Of a DNA stretch of 64,000 nt, positions 49,921 to 64,000 are shown piece by piece; within the stretch, counting starts at the first letter, position 1, and every line of letters begins with the position of its first letter. This DNA is from Promethearchaeia archaeon (GTDB taxonomy: Archaea; Asgardarchaeota; Lokiarchaeia; Sigyniarchaeales; SOKP01), in assembly GCA_029856125.1 (NCBI GenBank), contig JAHQWJ010000120.1:243170-307169 (forward strand), given 5' to 3'. A program made the position numbers and the translations under genes. Below the pieces are notes generated by a model. It ran no database searches. It had not been told where the DNA came from and saw nothing but the letters and a program-made list of their open reading frames with translations.

Positions 49921-50211
49921 GGTTTCGATTATCACCAATTTTTCATTTTTTACTTTTTTAAGTTTATTATTCCTTAAGTGTCTTGTATAATCTTCTGTCG
50001 TCAATTAATATGTAAAATAGTTAACATTTATAAATTTATTGGCGTCCAATGAGAGAAGTTGAGTTCAGATATTTAAACTTTTCTTTTACGTTTTTAATGT
50101 ATAACAAATGAAAAGGTAATGAGAGTTTAGTTTATGCCTATAGATGGTATTAGGTTAAAGGGCGTGCTAAGTTAGGAAGTCATCTTTTTATGATAATGTT
50201 TTTTCGTAATT

Positions 50212-50928
50212 TTATCTTAATTTTTGTAAATCTATTGGGTTCCCTTCTAAACAAAGTGTACTTATTTTTTTTAAGTTGTCTAAATCCTTTATTTGAATTA
50301 TTTTATTGTGCGTACAACCAAAAAAATATAATTTTGAAAGATTTGCTAACCCCTCAATTTCGCATATATCATTATAACTCAAATCTAAATCTTCTAAATT
50401 ACCTAAGTGTTGGAGATTAGTTATAGCAGAAATTTTGTTTTTTATTAGATTTAAACTCCTTAAATTTATAAGGGAATCAAGCCCATTAATCTCAGAAATC
50501 AGATTATCACATAAACACAAATATTTTAATTTTTTTAATTTGTCTAAATTTTTAATTCTAGAAATTTTATTTTTTTTTAACCAAAGTTCTTCGAGGTTTT
50601 GAAGCGCACTTAAGCCTTTGAGTTCAGATATTAGGTTCTTTTTCAGCCATAATACCCTTAAGTTTTCTAGATTATCAAGGCCCTTTATTTCAGTAATCTG
50701 ATTATTATTTAAACACAAAATCTCTAATTTTTTAAGTTTATCTAAGCCATTAATTTGAGATATCTGGTTGTTAGATAAATCTAAAATGTGCAAGTTGGAT
50801 AATTTCTCGAGGCCTTGTATCTTTTCAATATCCTTTATGCCTTTATTGGATAAGTTTAAGGCGTGATTTTCTATATTAAATTTTTGTCCATCATATTGGA
50901 CAAAATTTTGACTTTGTTGAAAATGCAT
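50212..50928 (-). CDS. leucine-rich repeat protein (SDS22-like, 22-aa repeats)
   Basis: About 9 LxxLxLxxNxIxxIxGLxxL repeats. Confidence 0.93.
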   Translation of the reverse strand: MHFQQSQNFVQYDGQKFNIENHALNLSNKGIKDIEKIQGLEKLSNLHILDLSNNQISQINGLDKLKKLEILCLNNNQITEIKGLDNLENLRVLWLKKNLISELKGLSALQNLEELWLKKNKISRIKNLDKLKKLKYLCLCDNLISEINGLDSLINLRSLNLIKNKISAITNLQHLGNLEDLDLSYNDICEIEGLANLSKLYFFGCTHNKIIQIKDLDNLKKISTLCLEGNPIDLQKLR

Positions 50929-51043
50929 GGATTGATTTTAGTTAATCTTCTATTTAAACTTATCGTATGTGTTCTCTTTACTTAAGAAACATAAATGCTA
51001 AATTTTAAAGTAATAATTAATTATTTTAAGAGAGAATATCGAT

Positions 51044-51775
51044 ATGAATGCGATTAACAAGATTATCATCATGGGTCATCGAGGCGCTAGTAAAATAGCC
51101 CCCGAGAATACATTAAAAGCATTTAAAGAAGCAATTCGCTTAAAAGCAGACGCAGTCGAATTTGATGTCCAAGAAACAGTCGATGGTGAAATTGTTATCA
51201 TCCATGATTACGATACCCTTAGAACCGCTGGAACTGAAGGTACTGTAGAACAAATGACCCTTAAAAAATTAAAAAAATTGAATTTTGGAAATGGTGAACA
51301 AATTCCAACACTTTTGGAATTAATTGAGTTAGCAAAAGATAAAATATCTCTTAATTGCGAAATTAAAGTAGAAGGTATCGCTAAAAAAATAATTCACATT
51401 TTCCAAGATGCTGACATTCTTGATTCTACGATAGTTAGTTCATTTTTACATGAAGAATTGATTAAGATACAAAAAATTGAACCACAATTAAAATTAGCAA
51501 CCCTTGTCCCTACTGAAGCAGGAAAATTCTCAGATTGGAATTATAAGAAGAAATTAATTGATTTTACATCTGAGAATAATTACTATGCAATTAATCCGTT
51601 ATATAAACTAGCTGATAAACAATTTATCGAATATGCCCATGAAAAAAACATAAAAGTTTTTCCGTGGACTGTTGATTCTGGAATTGCTATGAAGAAATTA
51701 ATAAATATGGGCACAGATGGGATTATAACCAATGACATTACTCGTCTTAAAGAAGTTTTGAACCGTAATGACTAA
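51044..51775 (+). CDS. glycerophosphodiester phosphodiesterase
   Basis: GHRGAS...PENT, EFDV, HD, EIK, WTVD, DGIITN. Confidence 0.93.
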   Translation: MNAINKIIIMGHRGASKIAPENTLKAFKEAIRLKADAVEFDVQETVDGEIVIIHDYDTLRTAGTEGTVEQMTLKKLKKLNFGNGEQIPTLLELIELAKDKISLNCEIKVEGIAKKIIHIFQDADILDSTIVSSFLHEELIKIQKIEPQLKLATLVPTEAGKFSDWNYKKKLIDFTSENNYYAINPLYKLADKQFIEYAHEKNIKVFPWTVDSGIAMKKLINMGTDGIITNDITRLKEVLNRND

Positions 51776-51816
51776 TCCAATTAATAAAACTTAATTACAA
51801 ATTAATAGGGGATATT

Positions 51817-52548
51817 ATTTTTAATAAAAAAAAAGATGATTTTTTAGTAATAGGCCATAGAGGAGCTAGTTCAGAAGCGCCTGAAAACACTTTAAAAGCT
51901 TTTGAGAGAGCAATTGAGTTGAATGCCGATTATATTGAATTTGATCTTCAAAAGACTCTCAATAATGAGATTATTATAAGCCATGATGCCAATCTTTTAA
52001 GGACTGCTGATAAACCAAAATCTTTACGAGATATGTCAATTGAAGAAATTAAAAAAATAGATATTGGGGAAGGAGAACGAATACCTACATTACATGAATT
52101 AATGGTAACCACTAAAGGAAAAATAAAACTCCAACCCGAAATTATAGCTCCAGGAATTGTCGATGATTTAATTAACATTTTAAGAGAAGAAGACCTAATT
52201 AACACTTCAATCATTAGCAGTTTTGATATTGCGGAGCTATTAAAAGTAAAGAAAATTGAGCCACGATTAAAAATAGGCTCTTTAATTCCTAAAGCTTTAA
52301 CAAAAATTCGAATGGTAAAACGATATGTTCAAAGAGCAATAGATAATGAATTATATGCTATCCATCCATATTATCCAATAGTTGATAAAGAGTTTGTAGA
52401 TTTCGCTCATAAGAATGGTCTTAAAGTTAATGTATTTACAGTAAATGATGAAGATATGATGAAAAAACTAATTAAGTTAGGTGTTGACGGAATTTTTACT
52501 GACGATATTGCTTTATTAAATAGAACTTTAGAAAGAACTAATCAATAA
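51817..52548 (+). CDS. glycerophosphodiester phosphodiesterase, second copy; true 5' end lies upstream of the tracked TTG 51919
   Basis: In-frame upstream reads ...DDFLVIGHRGASSEAPENTLKAFERAIEL; no ATG/GTG/TTG before GHRG; start inferred at ATT 51817 (or 51814). Confidence 0.8.
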   Translation: MFNKKKDDFLVIGHRGASSEAPENTLKAFERAIELNADYIEFDLQKTLNNEIIISHDANLLRTADKPKSLRDMSIEEIKKIDIGEGERIPTLHELMVTTKGKIKLQPEIIAPGIVDDLINILREEDLINTSIISSFDIAELLKVKKIEPRLKIGSLIPKALTKIRMVKRYVQRAIDNELYAIHPYYPIVDKEFVDFAHKNGLKVNVFTVNDEDMMKKLIKLGVDGIFTDDIALLNRTLERTNQ

Positions 52549-52611
52549 AATATTTTAGTCAAATTCTATTATATTTCTTATTAATTTAAACGAAATTTTC
52601 TTAGTTTAACA

Positions 52612-54099
52612 ATGTCTTCAGTACAAAAATCACCGATAGATTTTAATAGATTATTCTTTCCAAGAGCTATTGGTATTATAGGAGCAAGCCATGATCCTGC
52701 AGGTGGTGGTTTTTTTGTTCGAGCAATGAGGGGCAAATTTAAAGGAAAAACCTACTTATTTAATCCAAGGTTAGCTGGAAAAACATTACATGGCCAGAAG
52801 GTTTACGCATCTATATTAGAAATTTCTGAACCAATAGATTATGTTATTATTGCGGTTCCCTCACGCATAGTTCCAAAGGTCTTAGATGAGGTAGGTCAAA
52901 AGTCTATTCCTTTTTGCACAATTTTCTCTTCAGGATTCCGTGAAGTTGGTAACGAGGATCTAGAAAAATTAACTCTTGAAACAGCTCGCAAACATAAAAT
53001 TCGAATCATTGGTCCAAATTGTATTGGTGTGTACAACCCTAAAGGGGGATTATTTTTTGCTTACGAGCAATCCCGCAAGCATGGTAATTTCGGAGGAATT
53101 TTTCAATCGGGAGGAATCGCTCAAAATGTTTCCCAACTCATAGTATCTTACGGTTTGTATGCATCAAAATTTATCTCTATAGGGAACTCCCTCGATCTAT
53201 CTCCAGTTGAATTTTTAGAATATTTCTTAAATGACGAGTATACAAAAATTATTGGTTTATATATTGAGAATCTGCGGAGTATTGAACAGGGAAGAAAATT
53301 TATGGATATTGTTAAAGAATGTAATTTAAACCGTAAACCTGTCATTCTTTGGCGGGCGGGATACGGAAAAGCAACTAAAAAAGCTATACTCTCTCACACA
53401 GGAGGTTTAGCGGGTAACAACGAAATTTGGAAGGCTGTAGGAAAACAAACTGGGAGTTGCATAACAAGTAACTCAAATGAACTTGCTGCGTTGGCATCTG
53501 CTTTTAATTTAACTCGTTTACCTAATTCGCGAAATGTTGGCGTGATTGGGATTGGCGGAGGTTCCACAATAGAAGCGATAGATATTTTAGAAAAGTATAA
53601 CCTAACAATTCCCCAATTATCAGAGAGAATCATCGGTAAAATGAAAAGATTCGTCCCAGATGTAAATACTAACTTATCAAACCCCATAGATTTAGGTGGG
53701 ATGGGAATTCAACCCAATATCTACTATCGTACGATATTAGCGCTTGATAAAGATCCTAACATTTCATCTATTATTTTCATTAAGGATCCCGAGAGATTTG
53801 GAGGTTTTTCTGACTTAATGGAAGAACTAGGGTATGGTGCATTAGATCTAAATAAAGAGTTTATCCGATACATATCAAAAGCGAAGAGTGTATGTACAAA
53901 ACCTATGTACTGCGTCATGCTGAAAATCAACGAGGGATTTGAAGAGTATAAAAGTAGATACAAGTTCAAGCTGAAATTGCTTAATCGAAATGTTCCAGTT
54001 TTTGAATCTTTAGATCTCGCAGGAACTGTTTTGGATAAACTAAACTCGTATCGTGAGTTCTTACAAAAACACGAAAAATATCCAAAAAGTAAAGATTAA
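52612..54099 (+). CDS. acyl/acetate-CoA ligase (ADP-forming) alpha-subunit family
   Basis: IIGAS, FSSGFRE, IIGPNCIG, QSGG, SHTGGLAG (phospho-His), NPIDL. Confidence 0.9.
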   Translation: MSSVQKSPIDFNRLFFPRAIGIIGASHDPAGGGFFVRAMRGKFKGKTYLFNPRLAGKTLHGQKVYASILEISEPIDYVIIAVPSRIVPKVLDEVGQKSIPFCTIFSSGFREVGNEDLEKLTLETARKHKIRIIGPNCIGVYNPKGGLFFAYEQSRKHGNFGGIFQSGGIAQNVSQLIVSYGLYASKFISIGNSLDLSPVEFLEYFLNDEYTKIIGLYIENLRSIEQGRKFMDIVKECNLNRKPVILWRAGYGKATKKAILSHTGGLAGNNEIWKAVGKQTGSCITSNSNELAALASAFNLTRLPNSRNVGVIGIGGGSTIEAIDILEKYNLTIPQLSERIIGKMKRFVPDVNTNLSNPIDLGGMGIQPNIYYRTILALDKDPNISSIIFIKDPERFGGFSDLMEELGYGALDLNKEFIRYISKAKSVCTKPMYCVMLKINEGFEEYKSRYKFKLKLLNRNVPVFESLDLAGTVLDKLNSYREFLQKHEKYPKSKD

Positions 54100-54135
54100 G
54101 AATTCGATCCAAAAAATAGGAATGTTTTTTATATT

Positions 54136-54939
54136 TCATTCGCTAATATGGCTCGTTTCTATAGGACGCCCGGGGCTCCCTTGATAATAAAATTTATCTG
54201 GCTTTCCTCTCCAGTTTTTATGTAAGACCGTGTTTGGGAAAATCACATTGTTATCCGTGGTTATTGCATTTGGGCCCATTATAATTCCGGGATACAAAGT
54301 CGTATTTTTTCCCATTATTATTTTCATCATGCTAATTTTTCCAAATATTGTATTTACAGCATGGCTTGATAGGGCAGATGTAGGGTAGATGAACACATTA
54401 TCGCCTAATTCAGTAAATTCTAATCCTACATACGCATCGCAGTAAATAACATTTTTCCCGAGATTATTGTGGCTTATCCTCCGCAACACTCTATTAACGA
54501 GCCATGGGAACGGAGATTTCGAAGTTAACCACATCGGAAATTTAATGATAAATCCTCGTTTATGATAGTATTTCATCATTTTACCATCCTTACTATCCTT
54601 ATCTTCTAAAACTCTTTTAAACACGCCTTCAGCAGGAGGAGATTTTTTATTCCATCTCCGTACCCATAACGCTGTAAACTCAATTAAGAGAATAAGGTAA
54701 AGGAAATAAAGAAAAAAAAGAAATCCCGGGAGTATCAAAAAATGGATTTCTAGAGGGATTGAGAGCGGAATTATAAAACCATACTCAAATAATAAGAAAA
54801 ATCCTAAACAAATATATAAAGGAACTAAGAAACTTATGAAATTTATTTTAAAAAAGTCTAAAACGGGAAGTTCTACAACTTTATCCTTTTTCTGTTCAAA
54901 TTCAGAATTTGTTTTTCCTACTCCTTTCTCTTTGCTCAT
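54136..54939 (-). CDS. membrane protein with a left-handed beta-helix (acyltransferase-like) C-terminus
   Basis: Two N-terminal TMs; LGKNV, LGDNV, MGKNT hexapeptide-like repeats; GSPGRP end. Confidence 0.65.
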   Translation of the reverse strand: MSKEKGVGKTNSEFEQKKDKVVELPVLDFFKINFISFLVPLYICLGFFLLFEYGFIIPLSIPLEIHFLILPGFLFFLYFLYLILLIEFTALWVRRWNKKSPPAEGVFKRVLEDKDSKDGKMMKYYHKRGFIIKFPMWLTSKSPFPWLVNRVLRRISHNNLGKNVIYCDAYVGLEFTELGDNVFIYPTSALSSHAVNTIFGKISMMKIIMGKNTTLYPGIIMGPNAITTDNNVIFPNTVLHKNWRGKPDKFYYQGSPGRPIETSHISE

Positions 54940-55047
54940 AATATTATTATTACTAAAATCTTATAAAAAATTATTTACATTGAATAAGACAGAAAGGGAT
55001 TTGCTCAACAAATAAAAAAAAATACAAAATAAAATAAATAAAAAAAA

Positions 55048-56337
55048 TTAGATTTTTTGCGTTTCTACTTCTATTACCTCTTGTGTAGGCAATACTTCTA
55101 TTTCTGGTTCTTGTGGACGATCGAGATATCTTATTTTAGTGAAAAACCATAAAATAATCGGATTTACGATTCCTATTAAAGCACTAGCAAGTAAGAGATT
55201 CACGACACCCATTAAACCCGCAAGAGGTCCTACTAATAACGCACCAATAGGAGCAATTGCCATAGATACTGTGTGATCAATAGACATAACGCGCCCTATT
55301 TTGTCGGATGGGACAACAGTTTGCAAAATAGTTAAGTATGTCGCAACAGTTATTGGAAAGATAATCGCTCCAAGAAACCCACCTATCATCATCATGTAGA
55401 AATTTTGATACGGTGCTAAAATGATAAGTACGTAAAACGTGAAAAAGACCATCTCTCCAATTAAATTGACCTTAATCTTGTTCTTCCACTCCTTCTTTAT
55501 TGAAGTAATTAAGGAGCCAATCACATTCCCTACTTGGATTGAACCAAAAAGGAAAGCTAAATGAAACACAGATCCATCGTGTATGATATTTATGAAGTAG
55601 GGCCACAGCACTCCGAAGGGCCTAAATATAAAGTTAAAAATCATCGCAAAAATGATCATACTTAAAAGACCCGGAATCGCCTTTACAATTTTAAATCCAT
55701 CCTTAAATTCCCTCATGAAAGATGTTTTCTCAGCAACTCTGGTTTCCTTAGCATTGAAAGGAATTTTTATCAAGAACAATGGTACTACGGCTATTAGGAA
55801 TGTTGCGCCGTCAATGAGAAAGATATAGGTAATTGGGAATAACCCTAATAGTAAAGCGGATAAAATCGGGCCGACCATGAAAATTAAGCCAGAAAACAAG
55901 AAGTTTCCTCCGTTAACTCTGCTTATTTTATCTTTGGGAACCATAGAAGGAAGTATCGCGTGGAATGTAGGGACTTGAAACGCAAAGAGAATGTTTCGCA
56001 TTGTATGTATAATCAATATCATCCAAATGGGTGTGAATCCAGTAAAAAAAATTAGGAACAAACCAAATGTCAATACTGCTTGGAACAAATCTACGGTAAA
56101 TATTATTGTCTTGCGATTTAGCCTATCAGAAAGTACTCCCGCAAACGGAGTAACGATAACTTGAGGGAGAAAAATCAAGAATGTCGCTAATGAGAGATAA
56201 AAAACGCTCTGTGTCTCAATTGTAATCCACCAAGTAATAACAAAACCGATAATTCCTGAACCTAATAGCGAAAATTGCTGTCCGGCCATAAAATAAAGGT
56301 AATGCCTAAACGATTTTTTTGTTGGTAATTCTTCCAT
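55048..56337 (-). CDS. MFS transporter (MefA/DHA3-like exporter)
   Basis: GQQFSLLGS, FAGVLSDRLNRK, PSMVP...RVNG, LQTVVP...GRV; about 12 TM. Confidence 0.9.
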   Translation of the reverse strand: MEELPTKKSFRHYLYFMAGQQFSLLGSGIIGFVITWWITIETQSVFYLSLATFLIFLPQVIVTPFAGVLSDRLNRKTIIFTVDLFQAVLTFGLFLIFFTGFTPIWMILIIHTMRNILFAFQVPTFHAILPSMVPKDKISRVNGGNFLFSGLIFMVGPILSALLLGLFPITYIFLIDGATFLIAVVPLFLIKIPFNAKETRVAEKTSFMREFKDGFKIVKAIPGLLSMIIFAMIFNFIFRPFGVLWPYFINIIHDGSVFHLAFLFGSIQVGNVIGSLITSIKKEWKNKIKVNLIGEMVFFTFYVLIILAPYQNFYMMMIGGFLGAIIFPITVATYLTILQTVVPSDKIGRVMSIDHTVSMAIAPIGALLVGPLAGLMGVVNLLLASALIGIVNPIILWFFTKIRYLDRPQEPEIEVLPTQEVIEVETQKI

Positions 56338-56641
56338 TTTTTTATTAAACCTTCAATTCTATATTCTTACAACTTAAAACCTTTTTCTTTAATACTTGAT
56401 ACGAAAGGTTCAATTAATAGTTTCGAATCGTGAAGTTTACGCATAGTTCGAACTACCGTAGAAAATGATTAGTATCATCATCATCAAAATCAATCGGGAA
56501 TAGTGAAAACTGTTTCAGTTTAAAATTGGGTAATCTACACAAAAGAAATAAGAAACAGAATGAACTAGTATTTCTCATAATGGAGCCAGAAGATATGAAG
56601 ATATCCGAGGAATTTATTGAGAATAAAATTTACCTCTATTC

Positions 56642-57043
56642 TTAAAATGGGTAAAATCTCGGGCGGTGGGTAAGGGATTTCCCTCGAATTAATTTTTCTA
56701 AGTTAGTTTTTAATGTTTTAAGCTCGTAATCCCCTTTAACTTTAATTTCATAAACATGTTTTTGATTTTTATTGTTGGTGGTTTGGTGATATAAGTTCAT
56801 TAAGTAGGACTTAGGTTTAGTAATAATATCTAAGGATATTTTTCGTAATGGTTCTTTCTGAACAGCGGTTTTTTTATCTTGGATCGTAATAGTGGTAGAA
56901 TTTCTTCGAGTCTTTACCGTAACAGAAAAATCTTTTACAATCTCTTCTAAAATGCTTAATATTTTTACTACGTGATCGGGAGCGTTCTCCCTCGCTTCAA
57001 AAATACCGATTTCCTTAGGTGAATTATTAGACAATACACCCAT
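56642..57043 (-). CDS. basic hypothetical protein
   Basis: 133-aa ORF with ATG start; no recognisable motif. Confidence 0.6.
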   Translation of the reverse strand: MGVLSNNSPKEIGIFEARENAPDHVVKILSILEEIVKDFSVTVKTRRNSTTITIQDKKTAVQKEPLRKISLDIITKPKSYLMNLYHQTTNNKNQKHVYEIKVKGDYELKTLKTNLEKLIRGKSLTHRPRFYPF

Positions 57044-57111
57044 ATTATAAAAGTAATAGTATTTAAGCTTTTTAGTCGGCGAAACCTACGACTCATGCGA
57101 TAAATTAATAG

Positions 57112-57822
57112 CTACAAGTCTCTACCCATACCGTAATAAATTAACAATCCCGAAGAAATAAGCAAAACTATAATAGAAAAACCCCATATCGTTTTAAAAG
57201 TGGGATCTTGCCACGTGTTATACAACAAGAGACCGTAAACTAAAGTAATCGCTAAAATGTTTCCAATAATGAACAAACTTAATTTTCTCTTTAAATTGGA
57301 GTCTTTAAAAAGGCTACGCAACCGTAGAGAGTAATAAATCACCGGAATAGTAAAACTTATTGTAAAAAGAATATTACCAGTGATGTAATACGGAAAACTA
57401 TATACAGGCGCCCAACTCTCGGAATAAGCCACTCCACTTGGGTATAAGTGAAATAAAAGCCAGGTTATTCCGTACGCACCTATTATTAGGATCGCTTTTT
57501 TAAGCGTAAACTCGTACTTCAATTTTAAAAGGCTTAAAATAAAAACTACTACGAATATGAACGAAAACATCGTTAGATAAGTTGCAAAAAAATATACGAT
57601 GGTAATAAATTCTCCTGGTGAAAAGAAAGCAATTAACACCGCAATTCCGTTCATTAAAAGACCAAGGCTCACGAAAAGGTAAAAACCACTTAGAGTTAAG
57701 GAATTTCGGTTGGTGTTGCGCTTTAACATTTTATAGATGAGGTAAGAAAATAACCCCACTATAAATATTTGTGGGACAAATATGATAAACAACCGCAAAT
57801 ACTCGGTGATCTGAAAAATCAT
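57112..57822 (-). CDS. 7TM-like membrane protein (Asgard-expanded family, HisKA_7TM/GPCR-like topology)
   Basis: Seven hydrophobic segments; W.PVYS loop; YYSLRLRSLFKDSNLKRKL basic inner loop. Confidence 0.7.
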   Translation of the reverse strand: MIFQITEYLRLFIIFVPQIFIVGLFSYLIYKMLKRNTNRNSLTLSGFYLFVSLGLLMNGIAVLIAFFSPGEFITIVYFFATYLTMFSFIFVVVFILSLLKLKYEFTLKKAILIIGAYGITWLLFHLYPSGVAYSESWAPVYSFPYYITGNILFTISFTIPVIYYSLRLRSLFKDSNLKRKLSLFIIGNILAITLVYGLLLYNTWQDPTFKTIWGFSIIVLLISSGLLIYYGMGRDL

Positions 57823-57939
57823 AATTACACTATTATTATTCTTTCGAAACTTTATTAAAAATTAGGTTTTTAAACTTAAAATAAATTTATTATTTTTAAA
57901 TAGGTAGGTTAGTTAATTAGCCGAACGAATATTTCGATA

Positions 57940-58959
57940 TTACTCTACTTTCCGCTCCAATATGAGATGCGTTCTAGTATATGTTAAGCCAAAGTGATTT
58001 ATAACTAAATTTTTACATTCAAACACGTTAATTTCCATCGGGACCGAGGCAAAGCGAAAATCATCATCGTAAGCCGCGTCTAAAAATTCCTTCATTAAAT
58101 AAATACTGAGTCCTTTCCCTCTGTGTTCTTTATCGATAGTAATAGAATATGCCACAAAAGAATTGTATTTTCCTTTTTGATTCTTCTTAAACGGGTTTGG
58201 AAGCGAGATAAAACATCCTACGAACTGTTTGGATTGTTTATGCCTAAGTAACTTCACCATATAAACACCTCCATATGTTCTCAGGAAAGAAAAAAAGTTC
58301 TCGACTAATTTTTCTGGGCTGGGGGTTACTCGCGATTCTGTAGCTAAGTTTCTGGAGCTCAAAATCAAAAGTGGCAATTTTATTTCTTGGAAATCGTCCC
58401 AATCTTTAAGGGAGAGAATTTCGTAACCTTCAAAATCGTATTTTTTCATCTCTTCTTCGGGAACTTTAACAAACTCTCCTTCCCATGTTCCTTGTTTAGA
58501 TTTAATATAAAACCCGAATTGGGCGAAAATTTCTTGATAAATTGGGGGATTAACAGGCTTTGAAACGCACAAATCGTTCAGACTATCTTCAGTCATGAAT
58601 CCATAGCCAAAAATAAAGGTGGGAGGGTTAATTGGTCCCCTTATTGTTTTATATTGATGTTTTTGAGCGTATGTGATTAATTCTTCAAGTAAATACTTGA
58701 TGTATTTTTCTTCGTGGTCAATTACACCAAAGAATCCAAAAAATAATACCTCCCCCCCGTCGTCGTACGCTAAAGTATGGCCTACAACCTTATTATTTTC
58801 TTTTAAAATCAACGATTTAGTGTTATATATAGTAAGATCGTGAAGTATAAAGTCGTAAAACGCTTCGCGGACGGGGATATTTATACCAAGCTGTAAGTAT
58901 TTTAAAATTTCGTTTGGCTTTTCTATCATACCTACCGATAAGCTCTCTGGATTTGTCAT
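57940..58959 (-). CDS. tandem-GNAT N-acyltransferase, YghO / bacterial ceramide synthase-like
   Basis: FFGFFG...IRGPINP...GF...NPPIY...FGF N-half; IDKEHRGKGL acyl-CoA motif A in the C-half. Confidence 0.7.
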   Translation of the reverse strand: MTNPESLSVGMIEKPNEILKYLQLGINIPVREAFYDFILHDLTIYNTKSLILKENNKVVGHTLAYDDGGEVLFFGFFGVIDHEEKYIKYLLEELITYAQKHQYKTIRGPINPPTFIFGYGFMTEDSLNDLCVSKPVNPPIYQEIFAQFGFYIKSKQGTWEGEFVKVPEEEMKKYDFEGYEILSLKDWDDFQEIKLPLLILSSRNLATESRVTPSPEKLVENFFSFLRTYGGVYMVKLLRHKQSKQFVGCFISLPNPFKKNQKGKYNSFVAYSITIDKEHRGKGLSIYLMKEFLDAAYDDDFRFASVPMEINVFECKNLVINHFGLTYTRTHLILERKVE

Positions 58960-59074
58960 CTTTCCGTTTTCTATTCTTATTATTATTTTTAACTCTAAAA
59001 TCTATCTAGTGTAATAAAAAAAGATAAAGTATCTTAAAACTTTAAGTTTTTATTATTCGTATAACTTCTCAATA

Positions 59075-60310
59075 TCAGAAATCCCAAGAAGGTTTAATAG
59101 CCTTTAGAAAGTTCTCAGTTTCTGGGATCATCTTCAAGTTCCCGTTCACTTTTCCCTCGTAATAGATAAAAACAACTTGATCCTCGAAAATATTTTCTTC
59201 CTTGAGGTATTTGAAGCAAGGCACGTAACCAAAAGGCTTTAAACCCGCGTTGTATAACATAGCTTGTTGTATAGGATGATATGCAGACGCGTAAAGTTCC
59301 AAATAGCGAATATTAAGTTTCTTTACCAGTTGTTTTACTTCCTCTATAAATACAAACAGCTGCTCTTTATTCGAAACATTGTAATTAATTTTTTCAAAGA
59401 TTCGTACTTGAGGTTGGTGTAAAAAGGAGACATATGCGTCTGAATTGTTAATTGAAATAGTTATTACGCTGTTGCCCAGATTATCCTTTTCTTCTTGGTA
59501 GGTCAAGTTTTGCTTAATAGTTTGAATTATTTTATCGTCAAAATTCAACGTCAAATGGTCAAATATCTCTGGAAATTCAAGCTGATACCTCTCGCGGGCG
59601 TAGTAATAACATGTTAAGACGCGTGGGATAATCTTCGGGATTTCTTTTCTGCGATATTTCGTTATTGTGTCCTCGTCGTATAAAATAAGCAAAAATTCTG
59701 ATTCATCTCGATTAAAAAAGATGTCTTTTTTTGGAAAAAAGGCTATCGGTTTTAACCCTATATAATCTGATAACGACTGAGATTTAGAATGAGCAGAACG
59801 TGCTTCCCCAAAATACATCAAAGCCCTTTTCTCGTATTTTTTAAGAAGAGCTATCCATGCGGCCATCAAAAGTTTTGGAAGAGAGCTCAGACCTTGAAAT
59901 TCTTTTTTAATCGTGAACCCATGGAGATACACACTTTTAATTGAAGCGTTAAATTTAATTCCAGCACAGCCAATAACTTCGGTTTTGTTTATTTTAAAAA
60001 CTATCCAATGATAGTTAGGGTCTTCGATCATCTTCCGTATTTCTTGCGCGTTTTCCAGTTCTTTGTACGGATATGTATTTTGATACACTTGTTGAAAAAT
60101 TTCTGAGATGCTTTGAGCTTCTTCAAGTTTAGCGAACTGGACCGTTGGTGTTAGTTTTTGTTCTTTAGAACCCGATCTTTTCGGAAAATTTATTCCATCA
60201 TCTAAACTTAAGTCTCTGTACTTAGCGTAGGTCCGAAGAAAGTCTTGAACAGTTACGATGGATTTTATAGTTTTAACTTGTTTGGCAATAGATTTGTTAT
60301 TCAAAAACAA
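59075..60310 (-). CDS. GNAT-family acyltransferase (two GNAT-like halves)
   Basis: VYQNTYPY, IKKEFQGL, GEARSAHSKSQ, GLKPFGYVP. Confidence 0.7.
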   Translation of the reverse strand: MFLNNKSIAKQVKTIKSIVTVQDFLRTYAKYRDLSLDDGINFPKRSGSKEQKLTPTVQFAKLEEAQSISEIFQQVYQNTYPYKELENAQEIRKMIEDPNYHWIVFKINKTEVIGCAGIKFNASIKSVYLHGFTIKKEFQGLSSLPKLLMAAWIALLKKYEKRALMYFGEARSAHSKSQSLSDYIGLKPIAFFPKKDIFFNRDESEFLLILYDEDTITKYRRKEIPKIIPRVLTCYYYARERYQLEFPEIFDHLTLNFDDKIIQTIKQNLTYQEEKDNLGNSVITISINNSDAYVSFLHQPQVRIFEKINYNVSNKEQLFVFIEEVKQLVKKLNIRYLELYASAYHPIQQAMLYNAGLKPFGYVPCFKYLKEENIFEDQVVFIYYEGKVNGNLKMIPETENFLKAIKPSWDF

Positions 60311-60515
60311 TTTGATATCCCAATAATTATATGATAATTGGTTTATTATTATGATGTAAAAATATTTAAACTTGCGTAATATCAGCGTAAGTTGTTATAT
60401 AAAGGAAACATTCTAAAAAAAAAAGTTATTAAATAATAAATTTTAACTCAGTATTTATTTAAATACAATCTCATTTTTCATCTTCAATGACAAAAAACCT
60501 TTCTTCATTTTATAA

Positions 60516-61436
60516 ATGGGTGAAATATATTTGAAGGCTGTACTTATTGATGCTCAAACAGCATCCTCCATAATCGCTGCTAAAGACGATTATATTTCTA
60601 ATTTTAGCGAGTTTGACTTACAGTCGCGCTTAGGAACCTTCGAAATGGTATCGAAAGAAGACTTAGTAGAATTTCTTTCACGACAGACCGTTGAATGGAC
60701 AAATTCTGAGGAAATTATCGTAAATAGAATTTTCAGTGAATTAAATATCTGTTACGCGCCGTACAAAGAATACCTATTGAACAGCGTTAAGCTTATAAAA
60801 ACCACCGGTCGAGAAGAATGCGACGCTGCTTACACGAGAAACACGTGCATATATGTTCCAATTTCGATGGTTCAATGGCCGTACGATCAATTAAAAGAGC
60901 TAATTGCTCACGAGCTTTTTCATGTAATCAGCACTACTAACCCAAAATTCAGGAATGACTTATATCTTAAACTTGGATTTAATGCTTGTCCCGAATTAGA
61001 TGTCCCTAAAGAATATAAACGGCTATATGTGTCAAATCCTGATACTATTGGGAAGAATTCCTATGTGAAATTTAAAAATAACGGCGCTCAGATAAAAGCA
61101 GTTCCTTTTCTCTATTCTAAAACTCCGTATACAGGTGGATATTTCTTTGAATACTTCCGTTTTACATTTCTTGAGTCTGAATTGAAACACGATAAATGCG
61201 TCCCGATATATGAAAATAGCCGGCCAAAATTCATTAGTCCTCCACATGAATTATTTGAGATGTGCGAAGAAATCGACCCCTACAATAACCAACATAGATT
61301 ACATCCTGAAGAGATTCTGGCCTATTATTGGAGCTTATTACCTTTTTCTGAATCAAAAATAGAACCTTATAACAGAAGCTATCTCGTAAAGATTCGCAAT
61401 CTCTTAGAGCAGGAAGGAACCAGTGTATTTAGTTAA
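60516..61436 (+). CDS. HExxH zinc-metallopeptidase-like protein
   Basis: AAYTR...LIAHELFHVIS and a downstream HPEEILA. Confidence 0.65.
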   Translation: MGEIYLKAVLIDAQTASSIIAAKDDYISNFSEFDLQSRLGTFEMVSKEDLVEFLSRQTVEWTNSEEIIVNRIFSELNICYAPYKEYLLNSVKLIKTTGREECDAAYTRNTCIYVPISMVQWPYDQLKELIAHELFHVISTTNPKFRNDLYLKLGFNACPELDVPKEYKRLYVSNPDTIGKNSYVKFKNNGAQIKAVPFLYSKTPYTGGYFFEYFRFTFLESELKHDKCVPIYENSRPKFISPPHELFEMCEEIDPYNNQHRLHPEEILAYYWSLLPFSESKIEPYNRSYLVKIRNLLEQEGTSVFS

Positions 61437-61520
61437 AAATGTAATCATAATTTTTTTTTAATTTTCGTTCATGAAATATAATGAGAGTGGTATAATCCCA
61501 ATAAGAAATGAAACTTAGAT

Positions 61521-61625
61521 CTAAAAAAATAGACTTCCAAAACTTACTAATACATAGCCTAACGAAAATAGAACTGCAAACCCTACGATTGTAAGAATAA
61601 TTGTATATATTTTTATGAAATCCAT
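61521..61625 (-). CDS. small single-TM protein (34 aa), not in the ORF track
   Basis: MDFIKIYTIILTIVGFAVLFSLGYVLVSFGSLFF*; GAGGGG RBS 7 nt upstream. Confidence 0.6.
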   Translation of the reverse strand: MDFIKIYTIILTIVGFAVLFSLGYVLVSFGSLFF

Positions 61626-61808
61626 TTAAGTTCCCCTCATGTTCCGTTATTCAATTTGCTCTAACTAAATAGATTATATAAAAGTTATGCCTATAGTACG
61701 AATGGATGTATTTTTAAAATCCAAATACAGAAAGCCGAATGAAGGTGTATTCATAGTTTATACAAAAATGTAAACTGTATATACAAAATAATACTTCTCT
61801 TAAATTGC

Positions 61809-61829
61809 GAATGAAATCTAATTTCATTC
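61809..61829. promoter_or_regulatory. perfect 9-bp inverted repeat GAATGAAAT-N3-ATTTCATTC, candidate operator
   Basis: Just downstream of TTAAAT and 46 nt upstream of ATG 61876. Confidence 0.45.
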
Positions 61830-61875
61830 TTACATCCAATTTGAATTTTTAAAACCATTAGAAGAGGTAAAAAAT

Positions 61876-62199
61876 ATGGTATACATTGTTGTTGAATCAA
61901 TAGCTCCACACAATCAAGCTGCAGAATCCGGAAAAAAATGGCTTGAGGTTACTAAAAAATTTCCTCCAGATAGAAGCATTAGCAAACAGGTCATGGTAGC
62001 TATACGACCTTCGAGTAGAGGAATGATTTCACTAGGTGTTTGGGACGTAAAAGAAGGGAGAGAAAAAGACGCACTCGTCCGAATGAACGAGTCAATGTTA
62101 ATGTTTGCCGAAATCCCGGGATATAAATACAGCATAAAAACATTCTTGTCTTCATTTGAAGCGATGGGTATTATAGGACTAAAACCACCTGAAGATTAG
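61876..62199 (+). CDS. small alpha/beta (ferredoxin-like) hypothetical protein
   Basis: 107 aa, GAGGT RBS, downstream oligo-T tract. Confidence 0.75.
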   Translation: MVYIVVESIAPHNQAAESGKKWLEVTKKFPPDRSISKQVMVAIRPSSRGMISLGVWDVKEGREKDALVRMNESMLMFAEIPGYKYSIKTFLSSFEAMGIIGLKPPED

Positions 62200-62263
62200 T
62201 TCGAAAAAAAATTACTCCTAATTCTTTTTTTTTATAATTTTTAGCAAATATTGAATTACAAAT

Positions 62264-62827
62264 CTATTTTCCTAGTATAATCTGCTCCCACATATTATTC
62301 CTGCTTTTAATTACTATGACAACCGTAAACAATCCCATTATTAGATTGGTCAGAATATTAGCAATTAAAAATCCCAGTTTTATATCACCATCAACAGCAA
62401 AAACAAGAACTAATACTCCAACAATACTATAAGGATCTACGAAGGGCCACAGAACTAAACTATATGGATGCATTGGAAGGTCCAATAGGATATGGAAAAC
62501 ATTTCCAAGCATACAAGAAAATATAAGAACTGGGGTTAATTTACACACCTCCTTTACCTTAACCTTATCGAGCCGAAAAAGTAAAGAAGCTATAATCGGA
62601 TAGAGAAGAACGGTAGCTAAAGCTGAGATTATTGTTCCTATAGTGAGCGCGCCAATCAGACTGTGCAAAATGAAATGATTGTCGATACCTTCACTAAAGA
62701 AAAGGAATAAAATTGGCACCTCAATATCGGGTATAAATGACCCAACAATTAAACCCGGTAGATTCAATCTTTTGTTTAGTTTTGAGAGCCCCCATGCGAC
62801 GGGGTAATGCAGAGGCGTAGCAGGTAT
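62264..62827 (-). CDS. DUF4184 / metal-dependent hydrolase-like membrane protein; start extended to ATA 62827
   Basis: In-frame extension (M)PATPLHYPVAW; GSFIPDIE, HSL, HILLD...H motifs; AGGTG RBS 7 nt before the ATA. Confidence 0.8.
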   Translation of the reverse strand: MPATPLHYPVAWGLSKLNKRLNLPGLIVGSFIPDIEVPILFLFFSEGIDNHFILHSLIGALTIGTIISALATVLLYPIIASLLFRLDKVKVKEVCKLTPVLIFSCMLGNVFHILLDLPMHPYSLVLWPFVDPYSIVGVLVLVFAVDGDIKLGFLIANILTNLIMGLFTVVIVIKSRNNMWEQIILGK

Positions 62828-63250
62828 TATTAAACACCTTTTATTATAACTACTAGTGTAATTTAATAGAATTTAAACTTAAATCCTTTCGATGTTAAAT
62901 TAAAGAGGTTTTTAATAAATTTCCTTCTATCCAATCTTCGTTATATTAATTAAGTACAAAAGGTGATTCCTGCCAATAATCTTCAACTCCGCTCTCCCAA
63001 ACTTAACGGTATTTTTAACCGCTAAGCTAAAAAACTTATTAAGTAAGGTCAATAAACCATAGGAAAGTGAGTAATCGCCTTATATTGACAGGAACCTTGC
63101 GTTTATACGAAAGACCGGTCATAAAATATACAATTTTTGTCGTATACTTTATCAAAGGAAAATGGTATTAATAAAAATTTAGGTATATAAATCTTAATAG
63201 AACATAGTCATTATTACAATAGAATAAAAGGCAAACTAGTACTCGATATT

Positions 63251-63328
63251 ATGGACGAGTTTATAATCAACGACTTCCTCACTTCTAAACTATTTGAACT
63301 TTATAAACTTATATTCTCGTTCTTCTGA
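63251..63328 (+). pseudogene. 5' stub of a Loki-type N-terminal-domain gene
   Basis: MDEFIINDFLTSKL matches MHTFKVNDFLTLKL of the 1833-aa protein at 9/14 positions, then similarity stops. Confidence 0.6.
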
Positions 63329-64000
63329 AAGAATTTCTAATATTAGAGCACTCTTACTCACGTGACCATTCAGTAATGCTAACTCTTTTATATCTTTTTC
63401 TTTATACCGCTTTATATTCAAGATACCGTCAATATAATATAATATATCTCTATTGGTTCCAGCAGAATTTAGTAATAATTGCGTTGTACCAGGTACAGAA
63501 TGACTATCCTCCGTGTAAATATATATTAGTATTTGATCAGGAGAGGAGGGGTAATATTTGCCACTTCCAACAACATTTACTTCCAATTTTTCTTTATCGA
63601 ACTGTTTTGACGTTCCTATGAATTCTGAATATCTTACATTTCCAGTGGGTTCAAATTGGAACGCATCGTGAATGTAAAGCTCGTCTGTCCATAAATCCTC
63701 CTCTGGAAGGCGGATGTAATGCTCTTCTTCAGTCTTATAATAAAAGACAACGTAATAATATCCATCAAATTGCAGATTAGTGTTTAGGATTTGCTTATCT
63801 CTATTCCAAAATTTAAAGTACCCATCAATCAATTTATCAACAAAAGGGCGATATTCATCGTATCGGTATCTATTATAACTACGACGACGCTGACCTGTAA
63901 ATTTTTTTCTGGTTTTTTTAATAAATTTTTTTATGATAGGGAGTAAGCCAATGAGTTCGCTATCATTAAGAACCTTTAAATATCCATTACGTAGAATCAG
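63290..64000 (-). CDS. hypothetical protein, 3' part (frame open to the right edge)
   Basis: The frame stays open upstream of TTG 63832: LILRNGYLKVLNDSELIGLLPIIKKF...RPFVDKLIDGYF. Confidence 0.75.
   Translation of the reverse strand: MILRNGYLKVLNDSELIGLLPIIKKFIKKTRKKFTGQRRRSYNRYRYDEYRPFVDKLIDGYFKFWNRDKQILNTNLQFDGYYYVVFYYKTEEEHYIRLPEEDLWTDELYIHDAFQFEPTGNVRYSEFIGTSKQFDKEKLEVNVVGSGKYYPSSPDQILIYIYTEDSHSVPGTTQLLLNSAGTNRDILYYIDGILNIKRYKEKDIKELALLNGHVSKSALILEILSEEREYKFIKFK

Follow-up and report, generated by a model that had tools for sequence, protein, structure and literature searches.

Described relatives and related pathways

The yghO gene of E. coli is reported to be the orthologue of the Caulobacter ceramide synthase (CerS) gene CC_1154 (PMC9386255). 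In E. coli, yghO (ECD_02850) adjoins spt, the gene for serine palmitoyltransferase, together with genes for an ACP, an epimerase and a fatty acyl-AMP ligase. Such linkage is typical of proteobacteria and not required in Bacteroidota. According to a Black Sea survey, cerS need not cluster with spt; the same survey reports an Spt-like protein in no archaeal genome (PMC11334938). Bacterial CerS is reported to be without eukaryotic orthologues (PMC11324152), and eukaryotic sphingolipid metabolism has recently been reported to have an association with Asgard archaea (PMC12872458).

A second type of pathway joins an acyltransferase to a ThiF-type adenylase. The two genes lie side by side in OxzAB of Pseudoalteromonas rubra, in TyzACB and TrzAS and in related N-acyl-tyrosine clusters, and acyltransferase, ThiF and nitroreductase together are described as the characterised oxazolone layout of P. 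rubra and mycobacteria, yielding N-acyl-amino-acid oxazolones (bioRxiv 2020.06.11.147165; PMC12856293; PMC12479983; PMC12596934). The ThiF of OxzAB-type pathways is reported to cyclise an N-acyl amino acid with ATP (bioRxiv 2020.06.11.147165; PMC12856293; PMC12479983).

The solved tandem GNAT proteins form a third point of comparison. MAB_4324 (7q3a), the glucosamine N-acetyltransferase GlmA (5kf1), Orf14 of clavulanic acid (2wpw) and MshD (1ozp) have the same two-domain fold as the archaeal protein described below (Z 18.6-22.9 over 267-295 residues). They share 9-14% identity with it and have no sequence-level match; the fold alone gives no substrate.

The tandem-GNAT protein of Lokiarchaeia

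The window is a 64,000-nucleotide stretch of contig JAHQWJ010000120.1 from an archaeon of the Lokiarchaeia (assembly GCA_029856125.1). The gene at issue is:

57940..58959, minus strand: tandem-GNAT acyltransferase gene, 339 aa, a single intact ORF with an ATG start

The original prediction had singled out a set of motifs, FFGFFG (residues 73-78), IRGPINP (106-112), NPPIY (137-141) followed by FGF (148-150), and HRGKGL (279-284), all of which are present in the protein. Their conservation across an alignment of 64 homologues means that they are not chance: F74, G75, G108, P109, N111, P113, G118, G120, Y141, F145 and F150 do not vary, at least 90% of the homologues retain R280, and the longer forms IRGPINIP and PVNPPIY occur in 41 and 42 of the 64, respectively. 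The C-terminal domain carries a canonical CoA-binding motif A and gives the sole Pfam match, to Acetyltransf_1 (residues 207-301, 27.3 bits, cut-off 20.7), and the N-terminal domain holds most of the invariant residues. The active site presumably lies between the two domains, as expected of tandem GNATs in general. A hydropathy scan found no hydrophobic segment, indicating a soluble protein.

The AlphaFold2 model shows two domains (pLDDT 92.3, pTM 0.90). Its top fold match is 7q3a (Z 22.9, rmsd 3.4, 291 residues aligned), followed among the tandem GNATs by 5kf1 (Z 21.6) and 2wpw (Z 20.3). Unrelated GNATs such as FemAB or protein acetylases had been named as a possible source of error in the first assignment. 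FemA is a weaker match (Z 15.2, rmsd 6.7, 271 aligned) than the tandem GNATs at Z 19-23, and the RimI and ArsN models match in the motif A region alone, far under cut-off. The predicted structure is thus closer to a tandem GNAT than to a FemAB protein. A PDB sequence search with the single 339-aa protein gave nothing significant; the best sequence-profile match in the PDB is N-myristoyltransferase, at E 1.2e-4 over just 65 positions.

Relationship to YghO and the bacterial ceramide synthases

The family first proposed, that of the YghO-like tandem GNATs, is the right one. A profile made from ten CerS-type references, none picked with the archaeal profile and the Caulobacter CC_1154 sequence not among them, matches the archaeal family with an hhalign probability of 97.6 over 284 columns; it replaced an earlier profile match at 99.95 that was discounted as partly circular. 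The same profile ranks the two YghO-like ORFs of the host genome first and second of 5023 ORFs. Like CerS and YghO, the protein is soluble, probably catalyses an amide-forming acyl transfer and is matched over its full length, with the same order of motifs (FGxF, GPxN, G-x-x-x-x-E/D-G-F, NxPxY...GF, PN/PD and the motif A region). It differs in being about 40 residues shorter than YghO and only 10-19% identical to the ten references. BLASTP against E. coli YghO gives 22% identity over 115 aa (E 0.005, a single pair) and the profile-to-single-sequence comparison with that protein is weak (probability 0.5), so the link to YghO is visible at the profile-profile level only. The BLASTP value falls outside the published CerS screen as given in PMC11334938 (E at most 1e-30, coverage at least 50%). 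On these sequence comparisons, the protein is a remote member of the YghO/bacterial CerS-like tandem-GNAT superfamily.

Within the superfamily, a CerS-only profile and a profile of the bacterial branch linked to ThiF score the archaeal family about alike (median 14.7 and 18.3 bits, respectively). A likelihood tree (LG+G4) was computed from 58 of 134 rows, with rows of more than 410 aa trimmed to their last 400 residues and the partial row L312 dropped; its branches are long. A branch with support of 97/95 splits 22 Lokiarchaeia-type rows from the other 36. Four of the 22 are unnamed proteins, which group with the genome-anchored ones. The Lokiarchaeia proteins are thus a separate lineage of the superfamily, here called type A. 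The AU test rejects a clade of these proteins with the proteobacterial spt-linked CerS (p 0.002, under the same model and long branches). A clade with the ThiF-linked bacterial branch is not rejected (p 0.38), and the tree itself does not join the two. For groups named post hoc, sister positions to the wider CerS-like group (p 0.10) and to the Bacteroides-type pair (p 0.27) are not rejected either. What the tree rules out is therefore the closest CerS reading alone: of the kinship first proposed, membership of the superfamily stood and a place among the proteobacterial ceramide synthases did not.

The sphingoid pathway

A ceramide synthase requires a sphingoid base to act on, whether endogenous or salvaged, and the original prediction noted that no serine palmitoyltransferase was visible in the window. 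This observation stands for positions 50000-64000, where no Spt-like gene was found, and the whole-genome search placed none in the window either. The host genome (99% complete) has one full-length alpha-oxoamine synthase, which scores 480 bits with the BioF/Kbl model and 425 with that for glycine C-acetyltransferase, against 343, 241 and 197 with the Spt models (cut-offs 640, 500 and 670); it is under every curated cut-off. The region around its PLP-lysine differs from the motif common to the Spt of E. coli and Sphingomonas. An SDR dehydrogenase, which we take to be of the threonine dehydrogenase type, adjoins the gene here and in 25 of the 30 best-scoring related loci. From its sequence and neighbour the enzyme looks like Kbl of threonine catabolism, so the search for Spt that had been proposed as a check came out against a sphingoid pathway.

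The same holds beyond the host. None of the 135 genomes of its taxonomic family passes the Spt cut-off. In 19 of the 53 family genomes that carry a strong copy, no alpha-oxoamine synthase was detected at E 1e-40, and 13 of these 19 are at least 90% complete. Homologues of spt, acpR, aasR and cerR, neighbours in the bacterial pathway, were found at none of 55 loci of the archaeal family and at none of 80 loci retrieved with ThiF; instead, the partners of the archaeal gene are ThiF, a 7TM-like protein and a second GNAT. A CerR search of the host genome returned one NAD-dependent epimerase-type ORF (24% identity, E 1.6e-14) on a different contig.

A true archaeal ceramide synthase would be consistent with the remote CerS homology at profile level, with the two AU placements that the tree tolerates (p 0.10 and 0.27), with the reported freedom of cerS from spt linkage and with the Asgard association of eukaryotic sphingolipid metabolism. 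Against this stand the Kbl-like scores, missing Spt motif and SDR neighbour of the sole alpha-oxoamine synthase, the family genomes that fall under the Spt cut-off, the carriers devoid of any such synthase, the rejected CerS clade and the marginal BLASTP match to YghO, and this function is very improbable. With no Spt-like enzyme, carriers without alpha-oxoamine synthase, no sphingolipid genes as neighbours and the CerS clade rejected, the predicted ceramide-synthase role is not supported; the protein very probably belongs to the superfamily without being a ceramide synthase. A suggested bearing on the lipid divide is likewise weak, given the reported lack of eukaryotic orthologues of bacterial CerS and a gene context that points to a small metabolite and not to bulk lipid. 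A tempting annotation is thereby corrected: motif likeness to bacterial ceramide synthase is no evidence here for archaeal sphingolipids.

Distribution in Asgard archaea

A word-based search of 1509 candidates yielded 107 homologues. The named ones come from Lokiarchaeota, Promethearchaeota and two Hodarchaeota, in agreement with the assignment of the host to Lokiarchaeia. Strong matches (E below 1e-50) number 76 and come from 58 of the 400 Asgard genomes, of which 57 belong to the host's order; a looser tally of 195/400 consists mostly of short motif A matches and was set aside as a family count. With a broader profile, YghO-like genes appear in 105 of 134 genomes of the host's family and in 9 of 14 of a second family. 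The host itself has a second, divergent YghO-like paralogue of 392 aa on contig C152. Plasmid searches with the 339-aa protein and with its partner GNAT (c1, below) gave no match.

This distribution bears on whether the enzyme might be a non-sphingoid amide lipid synthase that joins a long-chain acyl-CoA to an amine-bearing membrane component, such as an amino-acid lipid or the amino head group of an ether lipid. Characterised members of the superfamily are reported to add a fatty acyl chain (PMC11087976). One relative (P0223, 831 aa) is a fusion of a YghO-like domain to an AMP-binding domain like that of long-chain acyl-CoA ligases, and the host genome has 12 acyl-adenylate-forming homologues. 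However, the conserved neighbours are sensing and tailoring genes, with no lipid-synthesis gene among them, and the patchy distribution of the strong family is more in keeping with an accessory function than with core membrane synthesis. Such an activity is therefore unlikely; if real, it would partly vindicate the broader idea behind the original prediction, that a Lokiarchaeon makes fatty-acyl amide lipids.

The Lokiarchaeia cassette

In the window the gene lies in a row of four on the minus strand, in the order c1, the 339-aa protein gene, c2 and c6. The three companions are:

59075..60310, minus strand: c1, partner GNAT, 411 aa, Pfam Acetyltransf_1 at 19.8 bits; in 35 of 41 wide loci
57112..57822, minus strand: c2, stand-alone membrane protein, 236 aa, five segments over the hydropathy cut-off; in 31 of 41 wide loci
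56642..57043, minus strand: c6, small protein, 133 aa, with a conserved C-terminal Pro-Phe/Leu and a variable basic linker

The G+C content of the four genes (0.335) agrees with that of the contig (0.331) and the genome (0.327), giving no sign of recent transfer or mis-binning. The wide loci number 41: the window, and regions of up to 16 kb around 40 strong places, which were picked from the 76 for their spread and the length of their contigs. Besides c1 and c2 they contain ThiF (23 loci), a TPR-family gene (20), a kinase of the PAS histidine-kinase family (19), the small proteins c7 (15) and c6 (13) and a B12 radical-SAM enzyme (4). As a background, c2-type genes occur in 1.4% and kinases in 5% of 16-kb windows of the host genome. 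Gene order and orientation vary widely among the loci, and the counts are not a statistical test, the relatives sharing ancestry. At seven narrow loci the directly adjoining genes are, instead, carbamate kinase and c13/c12. A literature search, with most subscription papers outside its reach, found no description of the family or the cassette, which combines known types of enzyme in a new way and in a new host.

The cassette exists in two old paralogous forms, type A, to which the window belongs, with c2, and type B, with the 392-aa type of YghO-like protein and a large protein. The type B cassette of the host is split over about 45 kb of contig C152. One piece (C152:67042-70333, L002) consists of c1 and the 392-aa YghO-like gene. 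The other (C152:17968-23886) has ThiF beside genes for a 133-aa and a 1257-aa protein, relatives of which have no Pfam match.

The partner c1 is modelled with a tandem-GNAT-like fold (pLDDT 90.8), its best match being 7q3a (Z 12.6, rmsd 4.6, 252 aligned) with the other top rows close behind. It is fused to the 339-aa family in two proteins of 748 aa (P0111 and P0131), and the pairing survives shuffles of gene order, inversions, fusions and the split into two paralogous cassettes. Outside the host's family, six loci from three other families of the class were examined, and c1 lies near the divergent YghO-like gene at five of them, with methyltransferases alongside at two. In one further fusion (P0137, 478 aa) the family is joined to the TPR protein of the cassette.

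Downstream in the window (51044-56337) are genes for an ADP-forming acyl-CoA ligase alpha-type subunit, a hexapeptide-repeat membrane protein, an MFS exporter and two proteins in tandem that are presumably glycerophosphodiester phosphodiesterases. These accompany the cassette in 5-9 of 55 loci.

The MFS gene, three genes downstream, could speak for a detoxifying or housekeeping small-molecule acetyltransferase that uses acetyl-CoA and is linked to its neighbours by shared ancestry only, the more so as the best fold matches (7q3a, 5kf1 and 2wpw) are tandem GNAT acetyltransferases. Those matches are 11-14% identical, however, the exporter is found in just 5 of the 55 loci, and mere shared ancestry is at odds with a c1 pairing that persists through so many rearrangements; an enzyme of this kind is quite improbable.

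The membrane protein c2 has no Pfam or NCBIfam match. In the ESM Atlas its top cluster is automatically named histidine kinase N-terminal 7TM region, and the nearest Pfam-bearing cluster, PF16927, lies at 0.89 with the domain in 10% of its members. As a lead only, c2 resembles the 7TM input region of histidine kinases and is a candidate receptor. A hydrophobic segment is missing in 19 of the 20 kinase-family proteins of the cassette loci, which would suit a separate membrane sensor.

The small protein c6 raises the main rival to a metabolic role, a protein-modification module. The target of the two GNATs would then be one of the cassette proteins, namely c6, the small helical c7, the kinase or the 7TM-like protein, and ThiF would activate a protein C-terminus, for example the c6 tail. 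The conserved end, an aromatic residue followed by Pro-Phe or Pro-Leu, makes this reading attractive: c6 ends in Pro-Phe or Pro-Leu in 14 of 16 members of a first set and 12 of 12 of a second, compared with 10 of 2819 ORFs of the genome. The TPR-family gene at 20 of the 41 wide loci and the short N-myristoyltransferase match are compatible with a protein substrate, and most characterised ThiF enzymes are reported to act on peptides, proteins or tRNA (PMC12596934). The c2 7TM-like gene is present at all 16 c6 loci. ThiF is found in cis at just 6 of them, and the tail is kept in two genomes, G183 (99% complete) and G204, in which no ThiF of the cassette type was detected. The five-gene bacterial operon described below shows no small protein by annotation, and characterised members of the YghO superfamily act on small lipids. 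Modification of a cassette protein is, on the whole, unlikely, if still a serious contender.

ThiF and its bacterial counterpart operon

The host genome has a single ThiF of the cassette type:

C152:17968-18828: cassette-type ThiF, absent at the locus in the window

Among the 76 strong family places, 35 have ThiF within 5 kb. In a reverse test, 80 metagenome loci were fetched with ThiF alone; of the 48 that extend over at least 5 kb, 34 contain a YghO-like gene and 34 contain c1. In genus g12, a YghO-like gene is present in 46 of 54 genomes and a cassette-type ThiF in only 2 of 54. All solved ThiF/E1 structures match the archaeal ThiF over its first 162 or fewer profile positions, the NCBIfam models PRK08223, PRK14851 and Rv1355c match weakly and far under cut-off, and CxxC occurs in none of 24 cassette ThiF proteins.

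The sole plasmid match that covers at least 80% of the archaeal ThiF is from Ensifer (probability 99.6 over 237 columns), where the gene lies about 1.2 kb from a YghO-like gene. The Ensifer operon encodes, in order, a GNAT-like protein, so called from its sequence and without a Pfam match, ThiF, a membrane protein, a YghO-like GNAT and a nitroreductase-family protein. This five-gene arrangement (L077:5975-11117, L078, L165, L166-L245) is widespread in proteobacteria, including Ensifer, Shinella, Bosea and Asticcacaulis, and no characterisation of it was found in the literature searched. Eighty bacterial ThiF loci contain the GNAT-like gene in 78 cases, the nitroreductase in 76, the membrane protein in 75, the YghO-like gene in 72 and Spt in none. 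By analogy with the oxazolone layout, the operon is a candidate for making an oxazolone-related product. Four sphingomonad genomes hold a ThiF-linked YghO-like gene together with a separate CerS-type paralogue, which indicates that the superfamily has functions other than ceramide synthesis.

The archaeal cassette shares with the bacterial operon a ThiF homologous over its full length, a YghO-like gene mostly within 1.3 kb of it, a second GNAT, a multi-pass membrane protein and the absence of Spt. It differs in lacking the nitroreductase, which BLASTP with the Ensifer query found at none of 55 and none of 80 Lokiarchaeia loci and nowhere in the host genome. The partners also differ: c1 has no detectable homology to the bacterial GNAT-like protein (probability 0.3), nor c2 to the bacterial membrane protein (0.1), and the tree does not join the YghO-like branches of the two systems. 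Compared with OxzAB and TyzACB, the cassette again lacks the nitroreductase, has two tandem GNATs, one of them YghO-like, and comes with a 7TM-like protein and a kinase; ThiF is missing from about half of the archaeal loci.

Further variants occur elsewhere in the superfamily. Besides the fusion to an acyl-CoA-ligase-like domain, a YghO-like domain is fused to an alpha-oxoamine synthase in P0226 (933 aa). In other Asgard lineages (L317, L318 and L319, from G082, G087 and G045) a more bacterial-like YghO adjoins an adenylate-forming enzyme related to F390 synthetase; at L317 and L319 the TIGR02304 model passes its cut-off. What recurs is the pairing of an amide-forming transferase with a carboxylate-activating enzyme, and the YghO superfamily has large non-ceramide branches of this kind in both archaea and bacteria.

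A possible acyl-amide pathway

The best explanation, held tentatively and at somewhat less than an even chance, is by analogy with these pathways: the 339-aa protein would be a soluble amide-forming acyltransferase in a cassette that makes a small acyl-amide metabolite, together with c1 and usually ThiF. Conservation of the cassette, the reverse ThiF test, the pair of c1 and YghO-like genes in three other families, the ThiF match to Ensifer, the bacterial operon with its oxazolone-like layout and the other pairings of superfamily members with carboxylate-activating enzymes argue for this explanation. Weighed against it are the presence of ThiF near only 35 of the 76 places and in so few g12 genomes, the absence of a nitroreductase, the unlikeness of c1 and c2 to their bacterial counterparts, a tree that leaves the Lokiarchaeia proteins apart from the ThiF-linked bacterial branch, the near-equal scores of the CerS-only and ThiF-branch profiles and the seven narrow loci with other neighbours.

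In the proposed pathway, either the 339-aa enzyme or c1 would take an acyl group from an acyl-CoA that is bound to motif A of the C-terminal domain and attach it to an amino acid or another amine; the acyl-CoA could be supplied by the acyl-adenylate-forming homologues of the genome, 12 in number. The ThiF-type enzyme would then adenylate the carboxylate of the product with ATP and yield an oxazolone or another activated acyl species, as in OxzAB, and with no nitroreductase the product would stay saturated. The second GNAT may hand the activated species to another amine, and at some loci the B12 radical-SAM enzyme or a methyltransferase may tailor it. Since ThiF is missing at the locus in the window, either the pathway would end there at the N-acyl amide or the ThiF on C152 would work in trans.

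The least certain step is the last, in which the 7TM-like protein and the PAS kinase, itself free of a membrane anchor, may read the product. That the product is a signal read by c2 and the kinase is doubtful, if worth entertaining. The fullest form of the idea, an Asgard synthesis-and-sensing circuit in which two GNATs and ThiF make a diffusible autoinducer of the N-acyl-amide or oxazolone type and a stand-alone seven-helix receptor and a soluble PAS kinase read it, is rather unlikely; if true, it would be a quorum-sensing-like circuit with a fatty-acyl amide ligand in the closest prokaryotic relatives of eukaryotes. In any case, the compact conserved cassette now defined in Lokiarchaeia offers a route to asking about acyl-CoA-derived amide metabolites and signalling in Asgard archaea.

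Other Asgard loci of interest

In the tree, canonical-type YghO-like genes from two further Asgard genomes (L314, G310:C28; L315, G284:C29) fall in the wide CerS-like part. In genus g5, two genomes encode alpha-oxoamine synthases (L246, G156:C370:6084-7244; L247, G153:C101:13788-14945, and also G153:C4) that share the PLP-lysine motif of the Spt references. L246 and L247 score 448 and 434 bits with the Bacteroidota Spt model (cut-off 640), against 393 and 381 with the Kbl models. No YghO-like gene lies beside the synthases at these loci; the two genomes have three and two YghO-like genes, respectively, and no strong copy of the family described here. From their sequences, and barring contamination, the g5 enzymes would be stronger candidates for a sphingoid pathway in archaea than anything in the window.
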